The position numbers and the translations under genes were made by a program. Source: Squalus acanthias (lineage: Eukaryota). Taken from it: a stretch of DNA of 64,000 nucleotides. The notes under the pieces are model-generated. The model did no database searches. It was not told where the DNA came from and worked only from the letters and a program-made list of their open reading frames with translations. The stretch lies in assembly GCA_030390025.1 (NCBI GenBank), contig CM059437.1, forward strand, positions 80,352,001-80,416,000, written 5' to 3'. Shown here piece after piece: positions 5,676 through 60,204 of the stretch. Numbering within the stretch: the first letter of the stretch is position 1; each line of letters begins with the position of its first letter.

Positions 5676-6759
5676 TGATCCCTCGTAACTATTTTAATTA
5701 AATGTCCACATCTAAATTAATCCATCAGATGGTGGCTGTTCCTTCACTTCCTGTCAGTTCAAGACACCACAAAATACAAGGCTAGAGATTCCCGTTGGTA
5801 ATAATATGCATTCATCCAACATTCATCTGTCTGCCCTCTTAACAAAGGTGTTAACTCATTTATTTTAAATTAGCAGACAGAGGAATGTCATACAAACCCG
5901 TTAAGCATTCATCCACTAATGTCACCAAAAGCCATTTCTAACCTATAGTCTTCAGTCACTGCTGTCACCATCACCCGTGAGAGGCGGGTTGTGGGAAGAA
6001 ATCACTTGGACACAGGCACTGAAAAGAAACCTTTTTCTATTAAAATTATCTCAATATCTCTCTACCTTTTTAAAACTGGACAGCATGTACCAACTACATG
6101 AAAGGACTGTGAATGCGAGACAACTGTGGTAACAGTGCCAGGGCAGACCAACTAACTTTGGCAAAGCTTCTAAAGATGCCTGGGCCAGATTGAAGTGTTA
6201 ATCACAGGGAGGGGTTCTCAAAATCTAAACACTGCATGAAGTCAACAAGGGTTAAACAGCGCTTGAGCCTCTGGTAACCAAGCTCTCTCTGATCAAGCAC
6301 CAAAAGAAAATTCGATTAAAACCCTTTTGCAGACCCCCACCCCCCAGTTAATGGAAGGTACTGCTCTCATCAGAATGCCTATTCTTCCTCCTTACAGATT
6401 TACATTTCCACAGACCCACTATCAAAGTGCCCATTGTCTGATGTGACCTATGGCATTTCCCAAGGGCATTGGGAACTGCTCTCTCTGATTTCTCCAAAGC
6501 CCCTCTGGTTCCTGAAGAGTAGGGAGGTCCCGAAAGACTAAAGGCGGAATACGGTTACAAAAAGAAAAAGAAAAGAATGAAACAAATTTGCAAGCCAATA
6601 ACTCCATCATGGTTTGGACTGCAAAACCGATCAGCCATTTTGCTGGGAGGCAAGGAGGGGCGGAGGGGGAGGGGTGACTGATGTATAAGTGTTACACTTT
6701 GTCATCACTCAAGCTGTAACTGTTTACTGATCCATCATAGGATATATATGATTCAGAAG

Positions 6760-13438: not shown

Positions 13439-13805
13439 CTTAGAGCAGGTGGCTGCTTAACTAAGACCAGAGCCACCATGTCAGGCTGTGGATGTTCTGG
13501 TCAGTTTAGGATGAATGGAACGTTTGTGTAATTAATGACGGAGGGACATTTGACACTTTAAATTTTAATTGCTAATTGAAATGACAGTTATGGACCATGG
13601 TGGACAGCATGTAATCATGATTTGAAACCAGGATGATTTAAAGAACATTGTATTCCTGCACAAGATACACATCTGCAGCATGTTAGCTGTCAGCTGTCTA
13701 CCATACCAGCCTGCTCCCAAACAACTTCATATATCCCAGTCAGCCAGTGGCTCTAGTGTGCCAACACAAGCTCTCCAGAACATTATTTAATGCCGTCCTA
13801 TTTTA

Positions 13806-13925
13806 ATGCGGAGATGCCGGCGTTGGACTGGGGTGGACAAAAATGAGAAGTCGCACAACACCAGGTTATAGTCCAACAGATTGTAACTTTACCTGAGGAA
13901 GGGGCGACAGCTCCGAAAGCTTGTA
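13806..13925 (-). mobile_element. Second copy of the same Penelope-like mini-element, with an 11-bp TSD
   Basis: GTCCTATTTTA at 13795-13805 and 13926-13936. Bases 13806-13879 are the reverse complement of 47327-47400, and 13885-13925 is an inverted hammerhead-containing piece. Confidence 0.8.
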
Positions 13926-14144
13926 GTCCTATTTTACGGCATTTAGCAATCTTTACACTGAATAATAAACTGATGCAACAGCAATGAATTTATCCCTTGA
14001 AGGACTACTGGATGGTATGAACTAAAATGATCACCTGAAGTCCACCGCAATCAGCATTCGCAACAAATACACACCTCGTTTACAGAAAGGTGGGCACTTT
14101 ATATTCAGGATGTGGGATACATCAGAGAATGTTACAGATAGGCG

Positions 14145-19467: not shown

Positions 19468-19809
19468 TATTTTTCTGTATTTGCAATGTGCCTCTTACCA
19501 TTGAGGAAAGTTCAGACCATTTTTAACCGTTTGCTCCCTCAAAAAAATGGGAGATAGAGAGACAAAACTGAGTAGTTCTTATGGATTGGAGGATAAAGCA
19601 TTGTATGGCAGCCCAGTCCAGTGCTCTACCTTTACAGTGGGAAATAGTATTGGAAGAACTCACTGCATTCAGTCCCAATCACATTGAGTTAAAGGCTTGA
19701 ATCGCTCAAATATACAGAACTGTATTCACTTTTAAAAAAAGACATATAGTTCTGTCCCCTCAATGGCCAAATAGGTAAATTCCATTTGACCCAGCGTAGT
19801 ATTGAGCCA

Positions 19810-21788
19810 GTCAAAACAGAAAAAGGGGGCGTGTGACAGATGTCAGGTTGAGAATACAAATGAGAATCAAGCTGAATATAGAAAGCTCAGAGGGGAAGTG
19901 AAAAAGAAAATAAGAGGGGCAAAGAGAGAGTATGAGAATAGATTGGCAGCCAACATAAAAGGGAATTCAAAAGTCTTCTATAGGCATATAAATAATAAAT
20001 GGGTAGCAAGAGGAGGGGTGGGGCCGATTAGAGACCAAAAAGGAGACCTACTCATGGAGGCAGAGGGCATGGCTGAGGTACTAAATGAGTACTTTGTATC
20101 TGTCTTCACCAAGGAAGAAGATGCTGCCAAAGTCATAGTGAAAGAGGAGGTAGTGGAGATACTGCATGAGATAAAAATTGATAAAGAGGAGGTACTAGAA
20201 AGGCTGCCTGAACTTAAAGTTGATAAGACACCAGGACCAGATGGGATGCATCCTAGGTTGCTGAGGGGGGTTAAGGAGGAAATTGTGGAGGTACTTGCCA
20301 TAATCTTCCAATCTTCCTTAGATACGGGGGTGGTGACAGAGGATTGGAGAATTGCAAATGTTACACCCTTGTTCAAAAAAGGGTGTAAGGATAAACCCAG
20401 CAACTATAGGCCAATCAGTTTAACCTCGATAGTGGGGAAACTTTTGGAAACGATAATCAGGGTCAAAATTAACAGTCACTTAGACAAGTGTGGATTAATT
20501 AAGGAAAGCCAGCACGGATTTGTTAAAGGCAAATCGTGTTTAACTAACTTGATCGAGTTTTTTGATGAGGTAACAGAGAGGGTTGATGAGGGCAATGCGG
20601 TTGATGTGGTGTATATGGACCTCCAAAAGGCATTTGATAAAGTGCCACATAATAGGCTTACCAACAAAGTTGAAGCCCATGAAATAAAAGGGACAGTGGC
20701 AGCATGGATACGAAATTGGCTAAGTGACAGGAAACAGAGAGTAGTGGTGAACGGTTGTTTTTCGGACTGGAGGAAGGTATACAGTGGTGTTCCCCAGGGG
20801 TCAGTTCCAGGACCACTGCTTTTCTTGATATATATTAATGACTTGGACTTGGGTGTACAGGGCACAATTTCAAAATTTGCAGATGACACAAAACTTGGAA
20901 GTATAGTAAACAGTGAGGAGGATAGTGATAGACTTCAAAAAGACATAGACAGGCTGGTGAAATGGACGGACACGTGGCAGAAGAAATTTAACGCAGAAAA
21001 GTGTGAAGTGATACATTTTGGTAGGAAGAATGAGGAGTGGCAATATAAACTAAAGGGTACAATCCTAAAGGGGGTGCATGAACAGAGAGACCTGGGGGTA
21101 TATGTGCACAAATCGTTGAAAGTGGCAGGGCAGGTTGAGAAAGCGGTTAAAAAAGCATACGGGATACTGGGCTTCATAAATAGAGGCATAGAGTACAAAA
21201 ACAAGGAAGTTATGATGAACCTTTATAAAACACTGATTCGGAGTATTCTGTCCAATTCTGGGCACTGCACTTTCGGAAGGATGTGAAGGCCTTAGAGAGG
21301 GTGCAGAAAAGATTTACCAGAATAATTCCAGGGATGAGGGACTTCAGTTACGTGGATAGACTGGAGAAGCTGGGGTTGTTCTCCTTAGAGCAGAGAAGGT
21401 TGAGAGGAGATTCCATAGAGGTATTCAAAATCATGAGGGGTCTAGACAGAGTAGATAGAGAGAAACTGTTCCCATTGGCGGAAGAGTCGAGAACCAGAGG
21501 ACACAGATTCAAGGTGATTGGCAAAAGAACGAAAGGCGACATGAGGAAAAACTTTTTTACTCAGTGAGTGGTTAGGATCTGGAATGCACAGCCTGAAAGG
21601 GTGGTGGAGGCAGACTCAATTGTGGCTTTCAAAAGAGAATTGGATAAGTACCTGAGGGAAAAAAAATTGCAGGGCTACAGGGAAAGGGCGGGGGAGTGGG
21701 ACTTGTTGAAGTGCTCTTGCAGAGAGCCGGCACGGGCTCGACGGGCCGAATGACCTCCTTCTGTGCTGTAACCATTCTATGATTCTAT
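19810..21788 (+). mobile_element. 5'-truncated CR1 LINE: ORF2 reverse-transcriptase region plus 3' UTR, frameshifted near 21240
   Basis: The 494-aa ORF has PGPDG, NYRPISLTS, QHGF, DLQKAFDKV, GVPQGS and FADD motifs. It continues in another frame (LERVQKRFTR...LFSLEQRRLRGD) and ends in the CR1 terminus CCATTCTATGATTCTAT. Confidence 0.95.
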
Positions 21789-30030: not shown

Positions 30031-30212
30031 TCAGGTCAAAGCAGCCACGAATGTCCCAAATCGATTAGAGATGTCCGAATGCAAAGATCTCCAAGTTTGC
30101 ATGGGGCTCCGGCCTTTAGAGTCAGTAAGGTCGTCTGTGCAGTGGACCGACAGGCACTGCAAATGGCTGCCAGTCTGGACTGATGAAGCCTTGTTCTGGG
30201 AAAGCTCGTGGG
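30031..30212 (-). CDS. MN1: MN1 last coding exon (60 aa + stop); not in the ORF track
   Basis: The minus strand reads ...CCCTTTCCAG|CC CAC GAG... With the phase-1 G from exon 1 it translates as [60 protein letters not shown] (TGA at 30033-30031), matching the known MN1 C-terminus. Confidence 0.96.
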
Positions 30213-35067: not shown

Positions 35068-37565
35068 CTCACCCCTAGTATCCTCACCCCTGGTACCCTC
35101 ACCCCTAGTACCCTCACCCTAGTATCCTCACCCCTAGTACCCTCACCCCTAGTACCCTCACCCCTAGTATCCTCACCCCTGGTACCCTCACCCCTAGTAC
35201 CCTCACCCTAGTATCCTCACCCCTAGTACCCTCACCCCTAGTACCCTCACCCCTAGTATCCTCACCCCTAGTACCCTCACCCCTAGTAACCTCACCCCTA
35301 GTACCCTCACCCCTAGTATCCTCACCCCTAGTACCCTCACCCCTAGTACCCTCACCCCTAGTACCCTCACCCCGAGTACCCTCACCCCTAGTACCCTCAC
35401 CCCTAGTACCCTCACCCCTAGTATCCTCACCCCTAGTATCCTCACCCCCAGTACCCTCACCCCTAGTACCCTCACCCCTAGTACCCTCACCCCTAGTATC
35501 CTCACCCCTAGTACCCTCACCCCTAGTACCCTCACCCCTAGTATCCTCACCCCTAGTATCCTCACCCCCAGTACCCTCACCCCTAGTACCCTCACCCCTA
35601 GTAACCTCACCCCTAGTACCCTCACCCCTAGTACCCTCACCCCAGTACCCTCACCCCTAGTACCCTCACCCCTAGTACCCTCACCCCAGTATCCTCACCC
35701 CTAGTATCCTCACCCCTAGTACCCTCACCCCTAGTACCCTCACCCCTAGTACCCTCACCCCTAGTACCCTCACCCCAGTATCCTCACCCCTAGTATCCTC
35801 ACCCCTAGTACCCTCACCCCTAGTAACCTCACCCTAGTACCATCACCCCTAGTACCCTCACCCCTAGTAACCTCACCCCTAGTACCCTCACCCCTAGTAC
35901 CCTCACCCCTAGTACCCTCACCCCTAGTACCCTCACCCCTAGTAACCTCACCCTAGTACCATCACCCCTAGTAACCTCACCCTAGTACCATCACCCCTAG
36001 TACCCTCACCCCTAGTATCCTCACCCTAGTATCCTCACCCCTAGTACCCTCACCCCTAGTAACCTCACCCTAGTACCATCACCCCTAGTACCCTCACCCC
36101 TAGTAACCTCACCCTAGTACCATCACCCCTAGTACCCTCACCCCTAGTATCCTCACCCTAGTATCCTCACCCCTAGTACCCTCACCCCTAGTACCCTCAC
36201 CCCTAGTACCCTCACCCCTAGTACCCTCACCCCTAGTATCCTCACCCCTAGTATCCTCACCCCTAGTACCCTCACCCCTAGTATCCTCACCCCTAGTACC
36301 CTCACCCCTAGTACTCTCACCCCTAGTACCCTCACCCCTAGTACCCTCACCCCTAGTACCCTCACCCCTAGTACCCTCACCCCTAGTATCCTCACCCCTA
36401 GTATCCTCACCCCTAGTAACCTCACCCCTAGTATCCTCACCCCTAGTATCCTCACCCCTAGTATCCTCACCCCTAGTACCCTCACCCCTAGTATCCTCAC
36501 CCCTAGTACCCTCACCCCTAGTATCCTCACCCCTAGTACCCTCACCCCTAGTACCCTCACCCCTAGTATCCTCACCCCTAGTACCCTCACCCCTAGTATC
36601 CTCACCCCTAGTACCCTCACCCCTAGTACCCTCACCCCTAGTACCCTCACCCCTAGTATCCTCACCCCTAGTACCCTCACCCCTAGTATCCTCACCCCTA
36701 GTACCCTCACCCCTAGTATCCTCACCCCTAGTACCCTCACCCCTAGTATCCTCACCCCTAGTACCCTCACCCCTAGTAACCTCACCCCTAGTATCCTCAC
36801 CCCTAGTACCCTCACCCCTAGTATCCTCACCCCTAGTATCCTCACCCCTAGTACCCTCACCCCTAGTATCCTCACCCCTAGTATCCTCACCCCTAGTACC
36901 ATCACCCCTAGTACCCTCACCCCTAGTAACCTCACCCCTAGTACCCTCACCCCTAGTACCATCACCCCTAGTACCCTCACCCCTAGTAACCTCACCCCTA
37001 GTACCCTCACCCCTAGTACCATCACCCCTAGTACCATCACCCCTAGTACCCTCACCCCTAGTATCCTCACCCTAGTATCCTCACCCCAGTACCCTCACCC
37101 CTAGTACCCTCACCCCTAGTACCCTCACCCCTAGTACCCTCACCCCTAGTATCCTCACCCCTAGTCCCCTCACCCCTAGTATCCTCACCCCTAGTCCCCT
37201 CACCCCTAGTACCCTCACCCCTAGTACCCTCACCCCTCGTACCCTCACCCCTAGTACCCTCACCCCTAGTACCCTCACCCCTAGTATCCTCACCCCTAGT
37301 CCCCTCACCCCTAGTATCCTCACCCCTAGTATCCTCACCCCTAGTATCCTCACCCCTAGTACCCTCACCCCTAGTACCCTCACCCCAGTATCCTCACCCC
37401 TAGTACCCTCACCCCTAGTAACCTCACCCCTAGTACCCTCACCACTAGTACCCTCACCCCAGTATCCTCACCCCGAGTACCCTCACCCCGAGTCCCCTCA
37501 CCCCTAGTACCCTCACCCCGAGTTCCCTCACCCCAGTACCCTCACCCCGAGTACCCTTCACCCCT
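35068..37565. repeat. 15-bp minisatellite (CCCTCACCCCTAGTA)n, roughly 165 units
   Basis: Directly visible; variants GTAC/GTAT/GTAA/GTCC, CCATC and occasional 14-bp units. Confidence 0.98.
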
Positions 37566-43850: not shown

Positions 43851-44189
43851 ACAAACCATTATCCAATGTATCATATTCAGAGTTTTGTAGAGTTGGCAAT
43901 AACTGCACCAAACAAATCCAACATTAATATTTGTACTCAGCAATTATTCATCACTAGTTTAAAAGCAGAAACACGACTGTAATGGTATTCTGAACATGCT
44001 AGTCACAGATACTATAAACATACAACAATGAACAGAACAGTTGATTGCAGTGAGAGAGTTTTTCTAACTGAGTTATGAGACTCAGGCACTGATCGTGTTT
44101 GTAGCATTTCATCTGTTAAAATTAGCAGCTACTCCAGCATATATTTGTGTTCAGACAGTTCCTTTTAATCCACTCCAATTATTTTCCAT

Positions 44190-45228
44190 CCTCTCCTGAA
44201 AGCAATGAATCTCCCTGTGTCCTCTCCTGAAAGCACTGGGATCTCTCCTCTCCTGAAGGCACTGACTCTCACTGGGATCTCTCCTCTCCTGAAGGCACTG
44301 ACTCTCACTGGGATCTCTCCTCTCCTGAAGGCACTGACTCTCACTGGGATCTCACCTCTTCTGAAGGCACTGACTCTCACTGGGATCTCTCCTCTCCTGA
44401 AGGCACTGACTCTCACTGGATCTCTCCTCTCCTGAAGGCACTGACTCTCACTGGGATCTCTCCTCTCCTGAAGGCACTGACTCTCACTGGGATCTCTCCT
44501 CTTCTGAAGGCACTGACTCTCACTGGGATCTCTCCTCTCCTGAAGGCACTGACTCTCACTGGGATCTCTCCTCTCCTGAAGGCACTGACTCTCACTGGGA
44601 TCTCTCCTCTCCTGAAGGCACTGACTCTCACTGGGATCTCTCCTCTCTGAAGGCACTGACTCTCACTGGGATCTCTCCTCTCCTGAAGCACTGACTCTCA
44701 CTGGGATCTCTCCTCTCCTGAAGGCACTGACTCTCACTGGGATCTCTCCTCTCCTGAAGGCACTGACTCTCACTGGGATCGCTCCTCTCCTGAAGGCACT
44801 GACTCTCACTGGGATCGCTCCTCTCCTGAAGGCACTGACTCTCACTGGGATCGCTCCTCTCCTGAAGGCACTGACTCTCACTGGGATCGCTCCTCTCCTG
44901 AAGGCACTGACTCTCACTGGGATCTCTCCTCTCCTGAAGGCACTGACTCTCACTGGGATCTCTCCTCTCCTGAAGGCACTGACTCTCACTGGGATCGCGC
45001 CTCTCCTGAAGGCACTGACTCTCACTGGGATCTCTCCTCTCCTGAAGGCACTGACTCTCACTGGGATCTCTCCTCTCCTGAAGGCACTGACTCTCACTGG
45101 GATCGCGCCTCTCCTGAAGGCACTGACTCTCACTGGGATCTCTCCTCTCCTGAAGGCACTGACTCTCACTGGGATCTCTCCTCTCCTGAAGGCACTGACT
45201 CTCACTGGGATCGCTCCTCTCCTGAAGG
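44190..45228. repeat. 36-bp minisatellite (ATCTCTCCTCTCCTGAAGGCACTGACTCTCACTGGG)n, about 28 units
   Basis: Directly visible; 12-aa periodicity in the spurious ORFs. Confidence 0.97.
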
Positions 45229-45575
45229 TGCTGCCTCTTGGTTCTACAGGTGCCAGCCACCCTCCACTACTTTGCCCAAATGATCATGTTTCCTGTTGGA
45301 GCTCAATGAATGTCGGCAGGCTATTTGACCATGTGGTATCATAAACCAGTCCTCCATCAACCACCCCACATACACACTTTCCACCAGGGGTCATCGGATA
45401 GTGATCAAGAGCAAGAACCCTCACTAACCTAAAGAGCTGAGGCCAACTGTAACACCCGTACCACCACTCTGGCTGAGGTTTGTTAACTCAGTACAGACCA
45501 GGGATGGAATCTGAGATCTTCCTGACATGGAAGACTTAGTACCATACCAGCTAGTATAGCTGTCCATTGAACCAT
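45215..45575 (-). mobile_element. SINE-A copy whose tail runs into the 36-bp minisatellite
   Basis: Reverse-complement SINE-A blocks (TGTCGGCAGGCTATTTGACCA, CAGGGGTCATCGGATAG, TGAGGCCAACTGTA, AACTCAGTACAGACCAGGGAT). Further copies lie at about 9340-9590 (-), 17880-18200 (-), 23020-23230 (-), 27410-27795 (-), 31820-32015 (+), 34455-34830 (-), 42265-42580 (+) and 46805-47160 (-). Confidence 0.72.
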
Positions 45576-46168: not shown

Positions 46169-47189
46169 AAGCCTAGATTTTCCAATAATTGTTATTTTAA
46201 CGTCAGCGGTAAGTTAATTAAAATAAATGGGTTCCAGCAGGTGTTAAAATAATGTTGACCAGAAAATCTAGGCCACAGTGTCCTTAACTGGACAGTAATC
46301 TGGTGTTGCCAACCAGCCACCCATTTATAGAAACCACCCGATTGTCGTTCCCTTGAAATCAAGGCGAGGAAAATCGGGCAGGTTTCGCAACGGGCCGGTG
46401 ATCCGCTCCGCCAGATTACCACCCAGACAGAGAAGTTGAAAATGACCCCCAGATTGACAGAGGAGTGACAGAGTCTGCAACAGGGCTGACTGTGCTTGTG
46501 GCAGGACTACCTGTCCCCACGACAGGCGGGCACAATATAAGTGACATTCCTCACTCCTAAACACATTAACGATGTCACACTTACCCGTGTATACCATTCA
46601 TGAGCAAATGAGACCTGGTGATGTCCTCACTGTTGCACTCATACACTGCTGACATGGTGGAGTACAAATGACCAACGTCTCAAAATAGTCATTGAAACCG
46701 AGTGTGACAGCAGTGAATCACACTTGCCGTGCTCTCAGAAACACAGTTCACTGTTTTTTTTCCTCCAATCTAATAAATGGCACGTGACTGATTTTGTTTC
46801 CCCCCGAAATTTCTCTCCACCTCTCCTTATGGCGCTGAATTTTGCTGGGCTGGTTTAACGCCTTTCCAGCACCTCACCCAAATGGCTGTTCTTCATATGT
46901 TGGTGAGTTTCAGCAGGCTATTTGACTGCAGGGGTAGGAGACACGGAAGGTTTCACTGATGATCTTCTCCTCATCACATATACATTTTCCAGCAGGGATT
47001 ACTGGACTGCGGTCAGGAGCAAGTGCCCTGGCCCAGTGATGCTGAGGCCAATTGTAGGCCCTTACCAACCCAGCTACCTCAACACCGAGGGGATAAAACC
47101 TGGGACCCTCTTGGTCCGTACAGCTCAGCTAGCTCCCAGAATGAACTCACCGAGCCTTCGGGAAGTCTTTTAAAGCCATGTTTAATCTC

Positions 47190-47400
47190 GAGGTTATAGT
47201 CCAACAGTTTTATTTGAAATCACAAGCTTTCGGAGCTATCGATCGCCCCTTCCTCAGGTGAAGTAAAAAACTTCACCTGAGGAAGGGGCGATCGATAGCT
47301 CCGAAAGCTTGTGATTTCAAATAGAACTGTTGGACTATAACCTGGTGTTGTGCGACTTCTCATTTTTGTCCACCCCAGTCCAACACCGGCATCTCCGCAT
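47190..47400 (+). mobile_element. Penelope-like non-autonomous element with inverted pseudo-LTR, 13-bp TSD and hammerhead motifs
   Basis: CATGTTTAATCTC at 47177-47189 and 47401-47413; 74-bp inverted arms at 47191-47264 and 47270-47343; core CTGAGGA...GAAA. Confidence 0.8.
47273..47314 (+). ncRNA. Minimal type-I hammerhead ribozyme motif (mirror copy on the minus strand at 47220-47261; third copy at 13890-13925 +)
   Basis: TCAC-CTGAGGA-A-GGGGC[GATCGATA]GCTCC-GAAA-GCTT-GTGA: stem I TCAC/GTGA, core CUGANGA and GAAA, 5-bp stem II, palindromic AGCU stem III. Confidence 0.6.
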
Positions 47401-48252
47401 CATGTTTAATCTCAACACATTAAACTCTTCAAACAATTGCCAACAGCCCCCATCCCATCCCACTGTCTCTATCAACCCTTAAACCCTTGCATGATTCTTG
47501 GCCTCCCAGGGCATAGATTGCAACAGGTGGAGATTATTATATTTTTGAACCGGGGTTTCATTTTTTTCGATACGTTAAGAATGCATTGGTTTCAAAATAA
47601 TTCCAAATAAAGCACTAATTTAATTGCTCTGTAATAAGCGAGCTATTTATGGCGGGAGTAATTAACACCTTCACTGCAGCCTTCCTCAGCTGAGACTGAA
47701 ACAAGATATCCAGCCCAGGAATACAGTCCTGACAGAGGTGTCCTTATCAGCCCCGAGTCACCAATATAGCAGTGGTGTTGAGAATGACATTTAAAATCCT
47801 ACTTAACCTACCACACCTGCTTTAAGTTTGGAAAAAAAAATCTATAGATTAAGAAAATAGAATTTAAAGAAAAGAGCCCCCCTACTTTTGCCAGATGTGC
47901 TATTTTGCATTAGTTACAGGTGATGGGCGGCAGTATTAGGGGCTCTGATCATCGATCTCCCATCCGCAAAGCAACTTGATCCCTGTTTTCCGGACGGTGT
48001 GCAGTTAGGATTAGAAGTGTCAGGATCGCGTGGTCTGGTGGCACAGGGTCTAAGTGCACCAAGGCATCGCACTGCCGGCCAGCAGGGCACGGGTTGCCCT
48101 TTAACCCCAAGCAGTTCCTGTCGCTGGCAGCTCTTACTCTCACTTAGACCAAGCATTGAGGAGAAACATCCCAAGAGGGGGGGGGAATCAACAATATTTT
48201 TTTTGATTAAAAATCCAAGCGTAGGTCAGCTTCCTGTAAAAGAAACGGTGAG

Positions 48253-56537: not shown

Positions 56538-59500
56538 CTTCTTTGTTGGTACTTGCAGGCTTGGCCTTTTCCCACGGTGCCATTTGCTTGTCTTCATCCT
56601 GTGGATCCATCATGGCCTTGTCGTTAGGCATGTACCAGGTAGAGTTATGCTCTGCCATCAATGACTCAATGTCTATAGTGCTGATGGCAGCTTTACTATT
56701 GTCCGTGCCACAAGCGGCCAGTTCTGTGTCCCCATTCTGGCCGGCGCATTCAGCTTTTTTGTTCTTCATGGCAAGGGGCTGGTCTTCTGATATGCTAAAC
56801 TGTTGCCGCTGTAGCTGAATCTGTGCTTGCAGGATCTCCAGCGGGTGGATCTCGTCCTGTGTTGACGTGCTGGTTGGAGTGCGAACCTGCTCCATGCCTG
56901 GTGTGCCCGGGTGCCCACTCCCGGTGCTGCTAAGCCCAAAGCTGTCAGTGACAGGCCCTGTGTTGGAGGTAGTGTTGCTGTTAGGGTGTGCATTGAGCAT
57001 GCCGTGACCCATCTGTTTCTGGCTGCTCATCAGCCCGTGGTCAGCTCGCTGCAGTTTGGGGGAGCTGGTCACTAACCGGCTGGGCTTGGATATATTGTTG
57101 TCAGAGCTTGAAGACACCTCGTCTTCGTTCCCATAGTTGTTGCTGACATCGTCGGAAAAATCGACTTGAGGTGAGCTGCCATCTGATTTTGTCACACTTT
57201 GAATCCCACTGTCGAGGGAGGACATGAGGTCAGGTTGGTCAGGGAGTAGGAGGTCATTCCCTTTTGCCCATGATGGAGAGGTGAGGGACTTATCTTGCGG
57301 GGTCCCACCTCGATCTCCAGCATGTGTAGACTGACCCTGTTGCCCTGGACTGACCACCGGATTCACATTCTCAGCTGAATATTTGTCAAAGAAGTTCCCT
57401 GGACTGACGTGGCCACTGTCCCTTTTTCTCCTCCCTCTCCCTCTCCCCGTCTGTCCTTTGCCTTCACTTGGGACCGCCTCCAAGCCATAGTTTGGGGACA
57501 GGTTGCACTCGGGTTGGGACGGCTGGTTCTGCCCCTGTGTGCTGTTCTGGGCTGCAGGTGTGGCCAGCTTGCCGCTCCCGTTGCCAGAGACACCCATCTG
57601 GCTATTTTGAGGAGTGTTGCTCTGGAAGTACTCCGACCCGTTGCCATTGCTCCCAGTGGAGGCGCCGCCAACATTCCCACCTCCACCTCCACTGTTTGGC
57701 CCGCCGCTGCTGTTGTCCTGCTCGGTTTGACTCAGTTTACGTTTCCCTTCATTCTGATTCTTTTTGTTAAATGTGACATTGAGGTTTGGAGCCCCCAAAC
57801 TGGCGATCATGTTCTGACAGGCCGTAGAGAGGGCAGCCAGGCAGCTCTGTCCATAAATGGTATTATCCTTTGCACCAGGCTTGTTGAAGGAGCCCAGCGA
57901 AAGGGACCCTATCTTACTCATTGAGGGACGCTGGTTGGGCTGAAATTCGGACTGGGGTGGGTAGTTACCGGGAGATGGAGGTACTCCAGGGGGATTGTTG
58001 TGTGGGTTTGCCGGTCGGTTTGGTCCCCCAAACGGAAAGCCCGGTTGTCCGCCCATTTGGGGACCTGGGAAATCAGGCCCAGGTCTTCTATCAGTTGTAG
58101 CGTTGGGGAGGCCCATGCCCCCACTGGGAGACTGCATCTGAGTGACATTGCCCATATTATTGCCAAATTGAGAGTGCATCCCAGGAGAGTGCAACCCCTG
58201 TACATGTCCGTCGCCTGGCATTCTCATTGGCTCTTGCATACCTAGTCCATTCCCACCTGGCCTAAACAGCATACTTGACCCATTCTGCTGTAAGTTCATC
58301 TGGACAGATTCATGGGGGCTCCCTTCAGGGGGCACAGCAGATCCACCCATCCTTCTCTGAAGCATATCTCCTGGTGGGTGGGGGCCTGGAAACCAGGAGT
58401 TTTCCTGACCCATCTGTGGATTCTGAGGATCAAAATTCGGCATCCTCCCACCGCTTTCCCTCTCAAAGTTTGGCTGTGACATATTTCCCACTTGGTTGCT
58501 GTGCACCATGCTGTTTTGATTGACGTCTCCATGGTGACCTAGATGCTGGAGATCAGGTTGCCTCATTCTGTGCCGCTGGTTCCTCGATACCATTTGCTTA
58601 AACATCATCAGCATGTTTTGGCGCTGCTGCAGGGACTGCTGGTCCGTCCCTGGATGCTGCAGAGGTGGGCCTGGGGGGAAGCCCTCTGGACCAGGCGGCG
58701 AAAACTCATTGGGAAGACCAGGGTATGCAGAGGGCGATAAATGGTTTTCCAAGCTTGCGTTATGCATACTGTTACTACTCCAAGTAGCACAATTGTCTAC
58801 ATTGTGGTTATTTGCAAAGTCAAACCTTGGCCGCTTTGCCACGTTGAGATATGGAGCGTCAAAATGTTGTAGTCTCTGGTTGGGCTGCTGTTGAATGTTG
58901 AACATAGGCTCGCTGTAAGGGTGCATATTTCTGTTCTCTAATCTTTGAATTGGGTATTCAAAAGGAGCATGCTGATTCTGCATCATTGCCCCATTGTCCT
59001 GCAGACTGGAGTTAGGAGCCCCGGCCTCTGCTTGCTGTTGCCTAGGTATCGCTGGTGGACAAGAGTTCTGTCGAGCAAGCAAACCTGCCTGTTGCGGCAT
59101 TAAAGGATTCCTGGCAGCGACCCCAGGCTCCATGCCCACAGACATCTTTCGAGCATTCCCAAACCTTTCGTAAAATACACCATGCTGTTGCTGAGGGTGG
59201 ACTTTGCCCATGCTCACCAGGCCTGGCGTCCTGGGCATGGCAGGATTGGCAGGAAAGTTACTGCTGGGCACCTGCCTGCCGGTGCCATAGTGAGGGAGCT
59301 GGGCATTGGACTCCGAAGGGGAAAACACTGGCAAGTCAAAGGGCCCCGAAGGGGGATCATTCGGGTAGTTGTATTCCATTGAATCCACTGGGGGCTGGTT
59401 CTGCAAACGTCTCTGCTCCAGTGCATGTGCATCGGATGAGGAAGAGGCTGGAAGCCCGTGAAAAGAGGCAGCTCGGTTGGGAGATTGGTCCAGAGGAAGG

Positions 59501-60204
59501 CAAGGTGTGTGGTTAGATGCCGGGGTATGGTGTTGGTGGTATTCCGTGAGGTTACCTGATCTCCCCGGTGGTGGCTGCTGCTGCGGCGGCGGCGGCTGTC
59601 CGAAAGCTTCGCCTCCCCCTCCTCCTCCTCCTTGACTCTCGGCCATGGGATCGTAACTTTCTCCAAAAGCTTGCTGCTGTCCACTCAGAGGGTTGCCGCT
59701 GTAGCCGGGAGTGCCCAGGAGGCGGCCCCCGTGCAGGCAGGAAGGGCCGGGGTCAGATCCGCAGAAGCTGCCGCTGAAGTGGTGGTGGGCGTGCGGGTGG
59801 TGGTGATGGTGCCCGTTGGGGAAGTAGCCGTGCGCCGGCTGGGGCTGAGGCTGGGGCTGGGGCTGGGGGGGAGGAGGAGGAGGAGGAGGAGGAGGCGGCT
59901 GGGGCTGGGGCTGAGGCTGGGGCTGGGGAGGCGGCGGCTGCTGTTGCATGGCCCCGGCTCCGTGCAGCTCCGAGTGTCCCCGACTGTGGAAGGCGTACGG
60001 CTCGCCGCCCAGCGCCGGGCTCATGCCCATCGCCAGCATTGGGGGCTCGCTCAGGGGGTTGATGCCCTGTTCGCCCATGGCGTTGCCACTCCCGCTGGGG
60101 AAACTCGGGCTTTTGTAGTGCCCCGACATCCCCAGGGCGGACTGGCCGAAGTTTCTCTCTCCTCCTTGGCCACTGCTCCTGCTGAACTGATCCAGCCCGA
60201 ACAT
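56538..60204 (-). CDS. MN1: MN1 transcriptional co-regulator (meningioma 1), coding exon 1 (1222 codons + 1 nt)
   Basis: The ORF 56482..60213 contains MN1 hallmark peptides: MFGLDQF start, [101 protein letters not shown]. The ATG is at 60204-60202; the ORF finder began at an upstream TTG. The splice donor AAG|GTAACT lies at 56538/56537. Confidence 0.97.

Follow-up and report, generated by a model that had tools for sequence, protein, structure and literature searches.

RESULTS

A hairpin insertion in an intron of MN1

The window analyzed here is a 64,000-nucleotide stretch of Squalus acanthias DNA that carries the gene MN1 on its minus strand. The coding part of MN1 exon 1 (positions 56538 to 60204) was recognized as an open reading frame (ORF) with Atlas matches of 0.95 to 0.96, and its splice donor was read from the sequence. 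A short minus-strand exon at about 30031 to 30212, whose acceptor was also read from the sequence, is probably the coding part of MN1 exon 2. A Pfam search returned nothing for MN1. A short hairpin insertion lies between these exons, within a 26-kb intron of which the closer splice site is 9 kb away; since both exons are on the minus strand, MN1 pre-mRNA carries the motif of the left arm of the hairpin.

The insertion consists of 211 bp between two copies of a 13-bp target site duplication (TSD), CATGTTTAATCTC, at 47177 to 47189 and 47401 to 47413. Two inverted arms of 74 nt each, at 47191 to 47264 (minus strand) and 47270 to 47343 (plus strand), flank an A5 loop at 47265 to 47269 and differ by one mismatch, a G at 47325 in the right arm versus a T on the left arm. 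Each arm carries the motif TCAC-CTGAGGA-A-GGGGC..GCTCC-GAAA-GC-TT-GTGA. The first-pass annotation had reported this structure and its location inside an MN1 intron, and it was accurate on both.

Comparison with the family described below allowed each segment to be assigned. The left arm is an inverted, tail-less copy of a Penelope pseudo-LTR that begins 53 to 54 nt inside the 3' end, and it is separated from the TSD by one filler base (47190) that matches neither target nor family sequence. The right, sense arm starts at the A of an initiator-like motif, the putative RNA start, and about three bases of the A5 apex would be templated by a T-rich stretch upstream of this likely start, the remainder being filler. 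Minimal type-I hammerhead motifs occupy 47220 to 47261 in the MN1 sense (minus strand, predicted cut after 47224) and 47273 to 47314 antisense to MN1 (plus strand, predicted cut after 47310, CUU). The unmirrored 3' part (47344 to 47400, plus strand) includes the Penelope "tail" and stops just before the ORF start codon of the element, and the first four bases of the right TSD copy (CATG) also continue the element sequence into that codon. The 3' half of the pseudo-LTR (47329 to 47383) is predicted to form a stem (GTTGGACT/AGTCCAAC), with the zone where inverted arms of the family usually begin in its U-rich loop and the zone where sense arms begin just 3' of it.

One contig each from X6 (organism B) and X7 (organism C) runs straight from 47176 to 47401 with a single TSD copy, so that the 13-bp repeat is a true target site duplication. 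Contigs of X1 (organism A) span both insertion junctions, and among the contigs listed for X5 (organism A) none spans either one. The hairpin is thus a lineage-specific insertion, with an empty site in two related organisms, and is young, as had been proposed.

Other features of the window were recorded as well. A second insertion of the same Penelope family lies downstream of MN1 exon 2 on the minus strand (13795 to 13936), with 120 bp between 11-bp TSD copies (TAAAATAGGAC) and with the hammerhead kept by its inverted arm only. A CTGANGA...GAAA match with a short stem (GGGAGGTCCC) at 6512 to 6535 is unrelated to this family; the pattern matched 12 times versus 6.1 expected, and this match may be due to chance. 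A 498-amino-acid open frame at 19790 to 21286 presumably resembles a CR1-like reverse transcriptase. Long tandem arrays (about 15-bp and 30-bp units) occupy 35100 to 37100 and 44150 to 45350 of the MN1 intron, and read depth was raised in all four runs over 46860 to 47150, which marks a low-copy repeat of greater age immediately to the left of the insertion.

The parent is an abundant Penelope-like element

The 29-nt 3' end of the insertion occurs 33,353 times in exact form in the 3.7-Gb genome, which also contains 46,171 exact copies of a 31-nt core and 3,775 exact copies of the stem-II variant present in the MN1-intron copy. The best non-self match to the insertion was 100% identical over 129 nt and lay in the upstream pseudo-LTR of L031, an element that is nearly complete but frameshifted and that has a 1.9-kb inverted copy. 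At the protein level, 150 scored matches of 97 to 100% were obtained. The element L180 (G000:C20:29582322-29585000) has an intact 892-amino-acid ORF with an upstream TATA box and pseudo-LTR; further long frames of 884 and 896 codons were seen at C3322 and C11. Since the ATG of L180 lies directly 3' of its pseudo-LTR, the MN1-intron insertion corresponds to the 5' UTR/pseudo-LTR end of the element up to the start codon: within its 13-bp TSD it holds the last approximately 130 nt of the pseudo-LTR plus an inverted, tail-less copy.

The L180 ORF scored above the Pfam cutoff for the reverse transcriptase (RT) domain RVT_1. Its C-terminal GIY-YIG domain was recognized by motif and in Atlas neighbors on 22 to 27% of members; a Pfam search for GIY-YIG gave no match in the L180 protein, and a PDB sequence search with this protein gave no match at an E value of 0.01. 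As in EN+ Penelope-like elements (PLEs), the insertion has its 3' end in common with elements that combine an RT with a C-terminal GIY-YIG in one ORF (L031 and L180), and the layout comprises a pseudo-LTR, an adjacent inverted 5'-truncated copy, and a one-sided tail. The first-pass annotation had proposed a Penelope origin together with searches for copy number and for an autonomous GIY-YIG partner, and the shared 3' end, its 33,353 exact copies, and the intact ORF of L180 bear this out.

The L180 protein also has a DKG motif, a CX4CxxC linker (CHGNLCKTC), and two cysteines in the GIY-YIG core, and so matches the pattern of DKG, CX4CxxC-type linker, and two core cysteines described for Neptune and Nematis proteins (PMC8557442). 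Its finger lies between RT and endonuclease, as in the definition of the Neptune clade by a CX2-5CxxC finger in the same source. We prefer Neptune over Nematis because Neptune is the clade with a linker that has been reported in vertebrates (bioRxiv 2026.07.22.740005), and we regard the parent as a Neptune-type PLE, a clade assignment made by motifs and not by tree.

A head-to-head inverted, 5'-truncated pseudo-LTR with a one-sided tail of 30 to 40 bp and a TSD is known for EN-bearing PLEs (PMC3846280, PMC8557442). As described there, Pen2a_Av-type PLEs share with the present family an inverted tail-less copy, a TSD, a pseudo-LTR that runs into the ORF start, and TATATATA followed by an initiator-like motif. 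Unlike these elements, the MN1-intron insertion is 211 bp in all and has no ORF, and its family, with more than 33,000 copies, has TSDs of 12 to 13 bp rather than 8 to 10 bp.

Inverted arms are the norm in the family

We examined the layout of 69 tail-bearing copies, taken from 70 of the first 100 listed exact 29-nt 3' ends and not selected by layout, and found an inverted arm in 46 of them (outer end in view). A second sample of 35 copies came from the stem-II variant set; 28 of these had an inverted arm, a count that gives no frequency because 14 regions had been picked as inverted pairs. TSDs of 12 to 13 bp were present in 49 of the 74 inverted copies. The sense end lay within a few bases of the ATG in the sampled copies, and the inverted arm began 24 to 37 nt inside the 3' end in 68/74 and at -48 to -59 in 2/74. 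Arm lengths ranged from about 50 to over 800 nt, reaching 1.9 kb in L031. An inverted arm is thus the norm in this family, and the MN1-intron copy is an ordinary member. Its one unusual feature is an outer end (-53/-54) that lies deeper than in all 74 sampled inverted arms except one tandem outlier.

The apex frame of the MN1-intron copy was common to 271 loci, of which 50 apexes were listed, and a closer apex comparison covered 20 loci, with L195 lacking a row. The loops varied. GTAC was found in 11 and AAATTT in 7 of the 50 listed apexes, and A5 in none of them, although a rare A5 sister is possible among the rest. The first-pass annotation had viewed the hairpin as a distinct noncoding retroelement, which would be transcribed and reinserted as a unit by the Penelope protein. 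The shared apex frame and the recurring loops are as such a unit would leave them, and hypermutated sister hairpins with a TSD (L159, described below) suggest that hairpin RNA is occasionally copied into DNA. A mobile unit should be represented by many copies that agree in their apex and at both ends, and no such set was apparent among the first 50 of the 271 apexes. The seven AAATTT hairpins fall into three stem-II variants, each hairpin having its own outer end and flanks, and their common loop is accounted for by a short palindrome in the template. The wide range of arm lengths and the lack of a TATA box in the stub also argue against a unit of this kind, which we consider quite improbable. 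Apex, outer end, and TSD are specific to each copy, and the variation in loops, stem II, outer ends, and flanks indicates that the hairpin is made anew at each insertion.

The hammerhead is conserved in the family but predicted to be inactive in the insertion

Alignment of 167 family motifs (55 distinct) gave a conserved core with covarying stems I and II, as in minimal type-I hammerheads. Stem I contained a C-G pair in 117 and a U-A pair in 37 motifs, and stem II a C-G pair in 158 and a U-A pair in 8; N7 was free, and U4 was C in 11/167. In 16 hand-picked distinct rows, 98.6% of cells were paired and two of nine pairs showed two-sided change, these being related rows and not independent events. 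The sequence pattern is that of a motif under structural constraint in the family, in agreement with the conserved hammerhead that had been suggested. The Rfam hammerhead search that had been proposed along with it matched no hammerhead family among 8 matches at E values up to 10; the best three were miRNA-hairpin models, and all 8 fell below gathering scores.

The motif resembles the minimal type-I hammerheads of metazoan PLEs, as described in PMC4209133, in its CUGANGA/GAAA core, the extra base before stem II, the G10.1-C11.1 pair, the lack of a stable stem III, and the palindromic AGCU. Stem II is 5 bp here versus 7 to 8 bp in Schistosoma hammerheads in that source. The occurrence of motifs mostly singly or on opposite strands near truncated PLEs is a further shared feature. 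The two motifs in the MN1 intron differ in that they are near enough to base pair with one another. Noncoding non-LTR retrozymes also carry type-I hammerheads and are derived from or related to PLE pseudo-LTRs (PMC7229834, bioRxiv 2026.07.22.740005). Retrozymes as described in these sources are head-to-tail tandem repeats that give circular RNA; the MN1-intron insertion is a single head-to-head pair with no monomer release, and we rejected its assignment as a non-LTR retrozyme.

The fold of the whole insertion was -155.2 kcal/mol (z = -22.6), and 0/200 shuffles folded equally well. A single arm alone was predicted to be about 8% hammerhead folded, whereas in the whole insertion the hammerhead fold would cost 78.6 kcal/mol on either strand. 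The long double-stranded RNA fold foreseen in the first-pass annotation was thus reproduced by prediction. The self-cleavage of MN1 pre-mRNA that it had also raised was not: given this cost, and with transcription from either side reaching the antisense arm first, the hammerhead in the MN1-intron copy is predicted to be off. The cut it had expected at 47310 is on the strand opposite MN1, so the site relevant to MN1 is that after 47224. In MN1 pre-mRNA, the 74-bp duplex is predicted to hide the ribozyme, and MN1 RNA is likely not cut.

We also considered whether the insertion regulates MN1, either because the pre-mRNA cleaves itself or because the insertion has been selected as an ADAR/Dicer substrate. 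The MN1-sense orientation of one motif and the small hammerhead-folded fraction of a lone arm would permit the former, and the duplex is a plausible ADAR substrate whose sister hairpins show ADAR-like changes. Against cleavage, the antisense arm made first and the energy of the duplex are joined by the in vitro results described in PMC4209133, where single minimal hammerheads were uncleaved and dimers were weakly cleaved, and by the Poseidon element of Anolis carolinensis (PAc), whose hammerhead needs the protein of the element to cleave (PMC11167929). The empty site in two relatives, the distance to the nearest splice site, the existence of tens of thousands of similar copies, and the absence of arm bias in the mismatch variant (see below) all weigh against either reading. 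Regulation of MN1 by this insertion is, in our judgment, extremely improbable.

ADAR-like changes in sister hairpins

The single mismatch in the MN1-intron hairpin could have arisen by ADAR editing. The variant with G at 47325 was present in 30/46,201 arms, of which 11 were tail bearing and 19 tail-less (P = 0.14). In 73 arm pairs from pattern-based sets, A>G and T>C changes numbered 2 and 3 in the tail arm only and 4 and 4 in the inverted arm only. When inverted pairs were taken from the highest-ranking BLAST loci, 12 of 15 had this G on the tail-bearing arm only, which reflects query bias. With the 30 arms split 11/19 and no A>G excess in the 73 pairs, we rejected an ADAR origin, and the mismatch is a rare point change.

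Different results were obtained for a small number of hypermutated sister copies. Pattern searches returned 4 A>G-pattern and 8 T>C-pattern matches, with 2 for a C>T control, and most of the A>G and T>C matches carry further changes of the same kind. Clusters of A>G changes were found in L159 (G000:C3:11763600-11763830), L160 and L167 (both C16), and L158 (C1), and also in L165, L166, and L168. In L159, L160, and L167 the changes are on one genomic strand in both arms (10+10, 6+7, and 6+13), and the tail is spared. In L158, L159, L160, and L167 the base 5' of the changes is preferentially U and tends not to be G (P = 1.4e-6), an ADAR-like neighbor preference, and L159 keeps a 12-bp TSD. The pattern in L159, L160, and L167 fits an edited hairpin RNA that was copied into DNA, and clusters on one strand in both arms suggest that hairpin RNA serves as a template at least sometimes; these clusters may also be an assembly artifact. 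The idea of an ADAR substrate thus gains support at the level of the family from the sister hairpins, whereas the G.U mismatch of the MN1-intron copy bears no editing signature. We found no report of ADAR-hypermutated retrotransposon copies that concerned PLEs in titles and abstract beginnings of the mostly open-access literature.

Arm ends and the putative 5' end of the RNA

The 5'-end positions of the arms were computed without the references L145 (hairpin containing) and L006. Of 56 pairs that extend as far as the initiator-like A, 21 have a longer arm that ends within -6 to +1 of it, compared with 22 of 35 over the next 200 nt. The A lies seven bases before the hammerhead core, and in long copies a TATATA sequence starts about 31 nt upstream of it (30 to 34 nt in 123/125 matches, loci not deduplicated). 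In the MN1-intron copy, the sense arm aligns to position 0, the A itself, and the inverted arm to -3. The simplest reading of the 5' ends of the arms is that they would represent run-off at the 5' end of the RNA. Single-base apex loops among the 50 listed were G or C in 8 cases versus A or T in 4, an excess that is suggestive only as a signature of a cap.

Truncation at the hammerhead cut site was considered and rejected, the 5' ends being clustered at the initiator-like motif, approximately 35 to 45 nt upstream of the cut. The longer arm ended between +18 and +57 in 2 of 72 pairs. The copies read through the cut site, which is in line with uncleaved RNA as the template. PAc, as described in PMC11167929, likewise uses uncleaved RNA and is read through its cut site, and its two internal RT start sites bracket the tail, as would those of the present family. 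Its ORF starts inside the hammerhead and RT starts about 111 to 118 nt into the ORF; unlike in PAc, the hammerhead and both start zones here lie before or at the AUG.

The two arms were compared 413 times over six polymorphic sites and were discordant in 18 cases versus 168 expected. This agreement indicates that both arms derive from one RNA or one source, and it is equally compatible with a fold-back, with a hairpin-RNA template, and with two primers on one RNA.

DISCUSSION

Taken together, the above results make it quite probable that the MN1-intron hairpin is a short insertion of an abundant Neptune-type Penelope element, with the hairpin likely built at insertion and the hammerheads inside it predicted to be inactive. 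In the mechanism that we favor, the GIY-YIG endonuclease would nick both target strands 12 to 13 bp apart. One target 3' end would prime cDNA synthesis at the AUG region, with 4 nt of microhomology in the MN1-intron copy, and the other would prime at a second internal site upstream on the 5' UTR. The template of both cDNAs would be one RNA, or one RNA and a sister, copied as far as the 5' end that lies 7 nt before the hammerhead core; the two cDNA 3' ends would be joined head to head. The MN1-intron stub would probably be a dead end because it has lost the TATA box and the ORF. We infer the RNA start site, the cap, and the two-primer intermediate from DNA junctions only.

Four observations favor two primers. 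The 49 target sites show a preference for TGnC, then 12 to 13 AT-rich bases, then GnCA, with the same preference outside the TSD on both strands; the MN1-intron target fits TGnC only loosely, and many family copies are inserted in CR1-like or satellite sequence. The zones in which the two arms begin are distinct. Loop-free palindromic apexes, expected when antisense cDNA ends meet or anneal, made up 19 of the 50 listed (hand count). Finally, PAc nicks and extends both strands in vitro and has two internal RT starts (PMC11167929). The 1- to 5-nt matches at the 3' junction in 41 of 64 TSD-bearing copies are a raw count, uncorrected for chance; Frangieh et al. observed RT start without homology to the cut DNA, unlike these junction matches.

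The inverted arm might instead arise by self-priming of a single cDNA or on an antisense template, as a fold-back that needs no second nick. Palindromic junctions in rotifer Penelopes were read as self-priming on an antisense template (PMC3846280), and the subfamily variants shared by the arms are as expected from such a process. In L167 (1440 to 1680), about 12 flank bases are inverted inside the tail, as if one arm had been recopied through the junction of the other arm. A fold-back cannot leave loop-free apexes, however, and it is hard to reconcile with the symmetric target preference, with the fixed second start zone 24 to 37 nt inside the 3' end, and with the observation that the arm that extends farther at the apex may be the one or the other. 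We regard it as unlikely and retain the two-primer reading.

The mechanism recalls twin priming by L1, in which each of two target nicks primes a cDNA and the pair is joined through microhomology, leaving a 5' inversion inside the TSD. The two L1 pieces cover different parts of the RNA, whereas the pieces described here overlap and give a palindrome. Among the papers listed on twin priming and Penelope in the mostly open-access literature, none was on PLE insertion, and the way in which Penelope elements make inverted ends is described as still undefined in PMC8557442. Our broadest proposal is that these stubs record Penelope transposition: a symmetric double nick, two overlapping cDNAs primed from two 5' UTR sites of one RNA or a sister RNA, run-off at a capped 5' end immediately before the hammerhead, and a head-to-head join, with a finished hairpin being, rarely, transcribed, hyperedited by ADAR on both arms, and written back to germline DNA. 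For this proposal as a whole, we judge the case to be evenly balanced.

The MN1-intron copy is of little importance alone, being one recent stub of a family with tens of thousands of copies, and there is no sign that it plays a role in MN1; with its site empty in two relatives, it can serve as a presence/absence marker. If the rare A-to-G hairpins are real, they preserve ADAR editing in heritable form. At the level of the family, the two-primer model can be tested in vitro, because the element is young and has an intact ORF, a sharp 12- to 13-bp TSD, and two start zones. If true, the double-nick, two-cDNA reading would account for the inverted pseudo-LTR, for the tail being one sided, and for the large number of solo minimal hammerheads that animal genomes contain.
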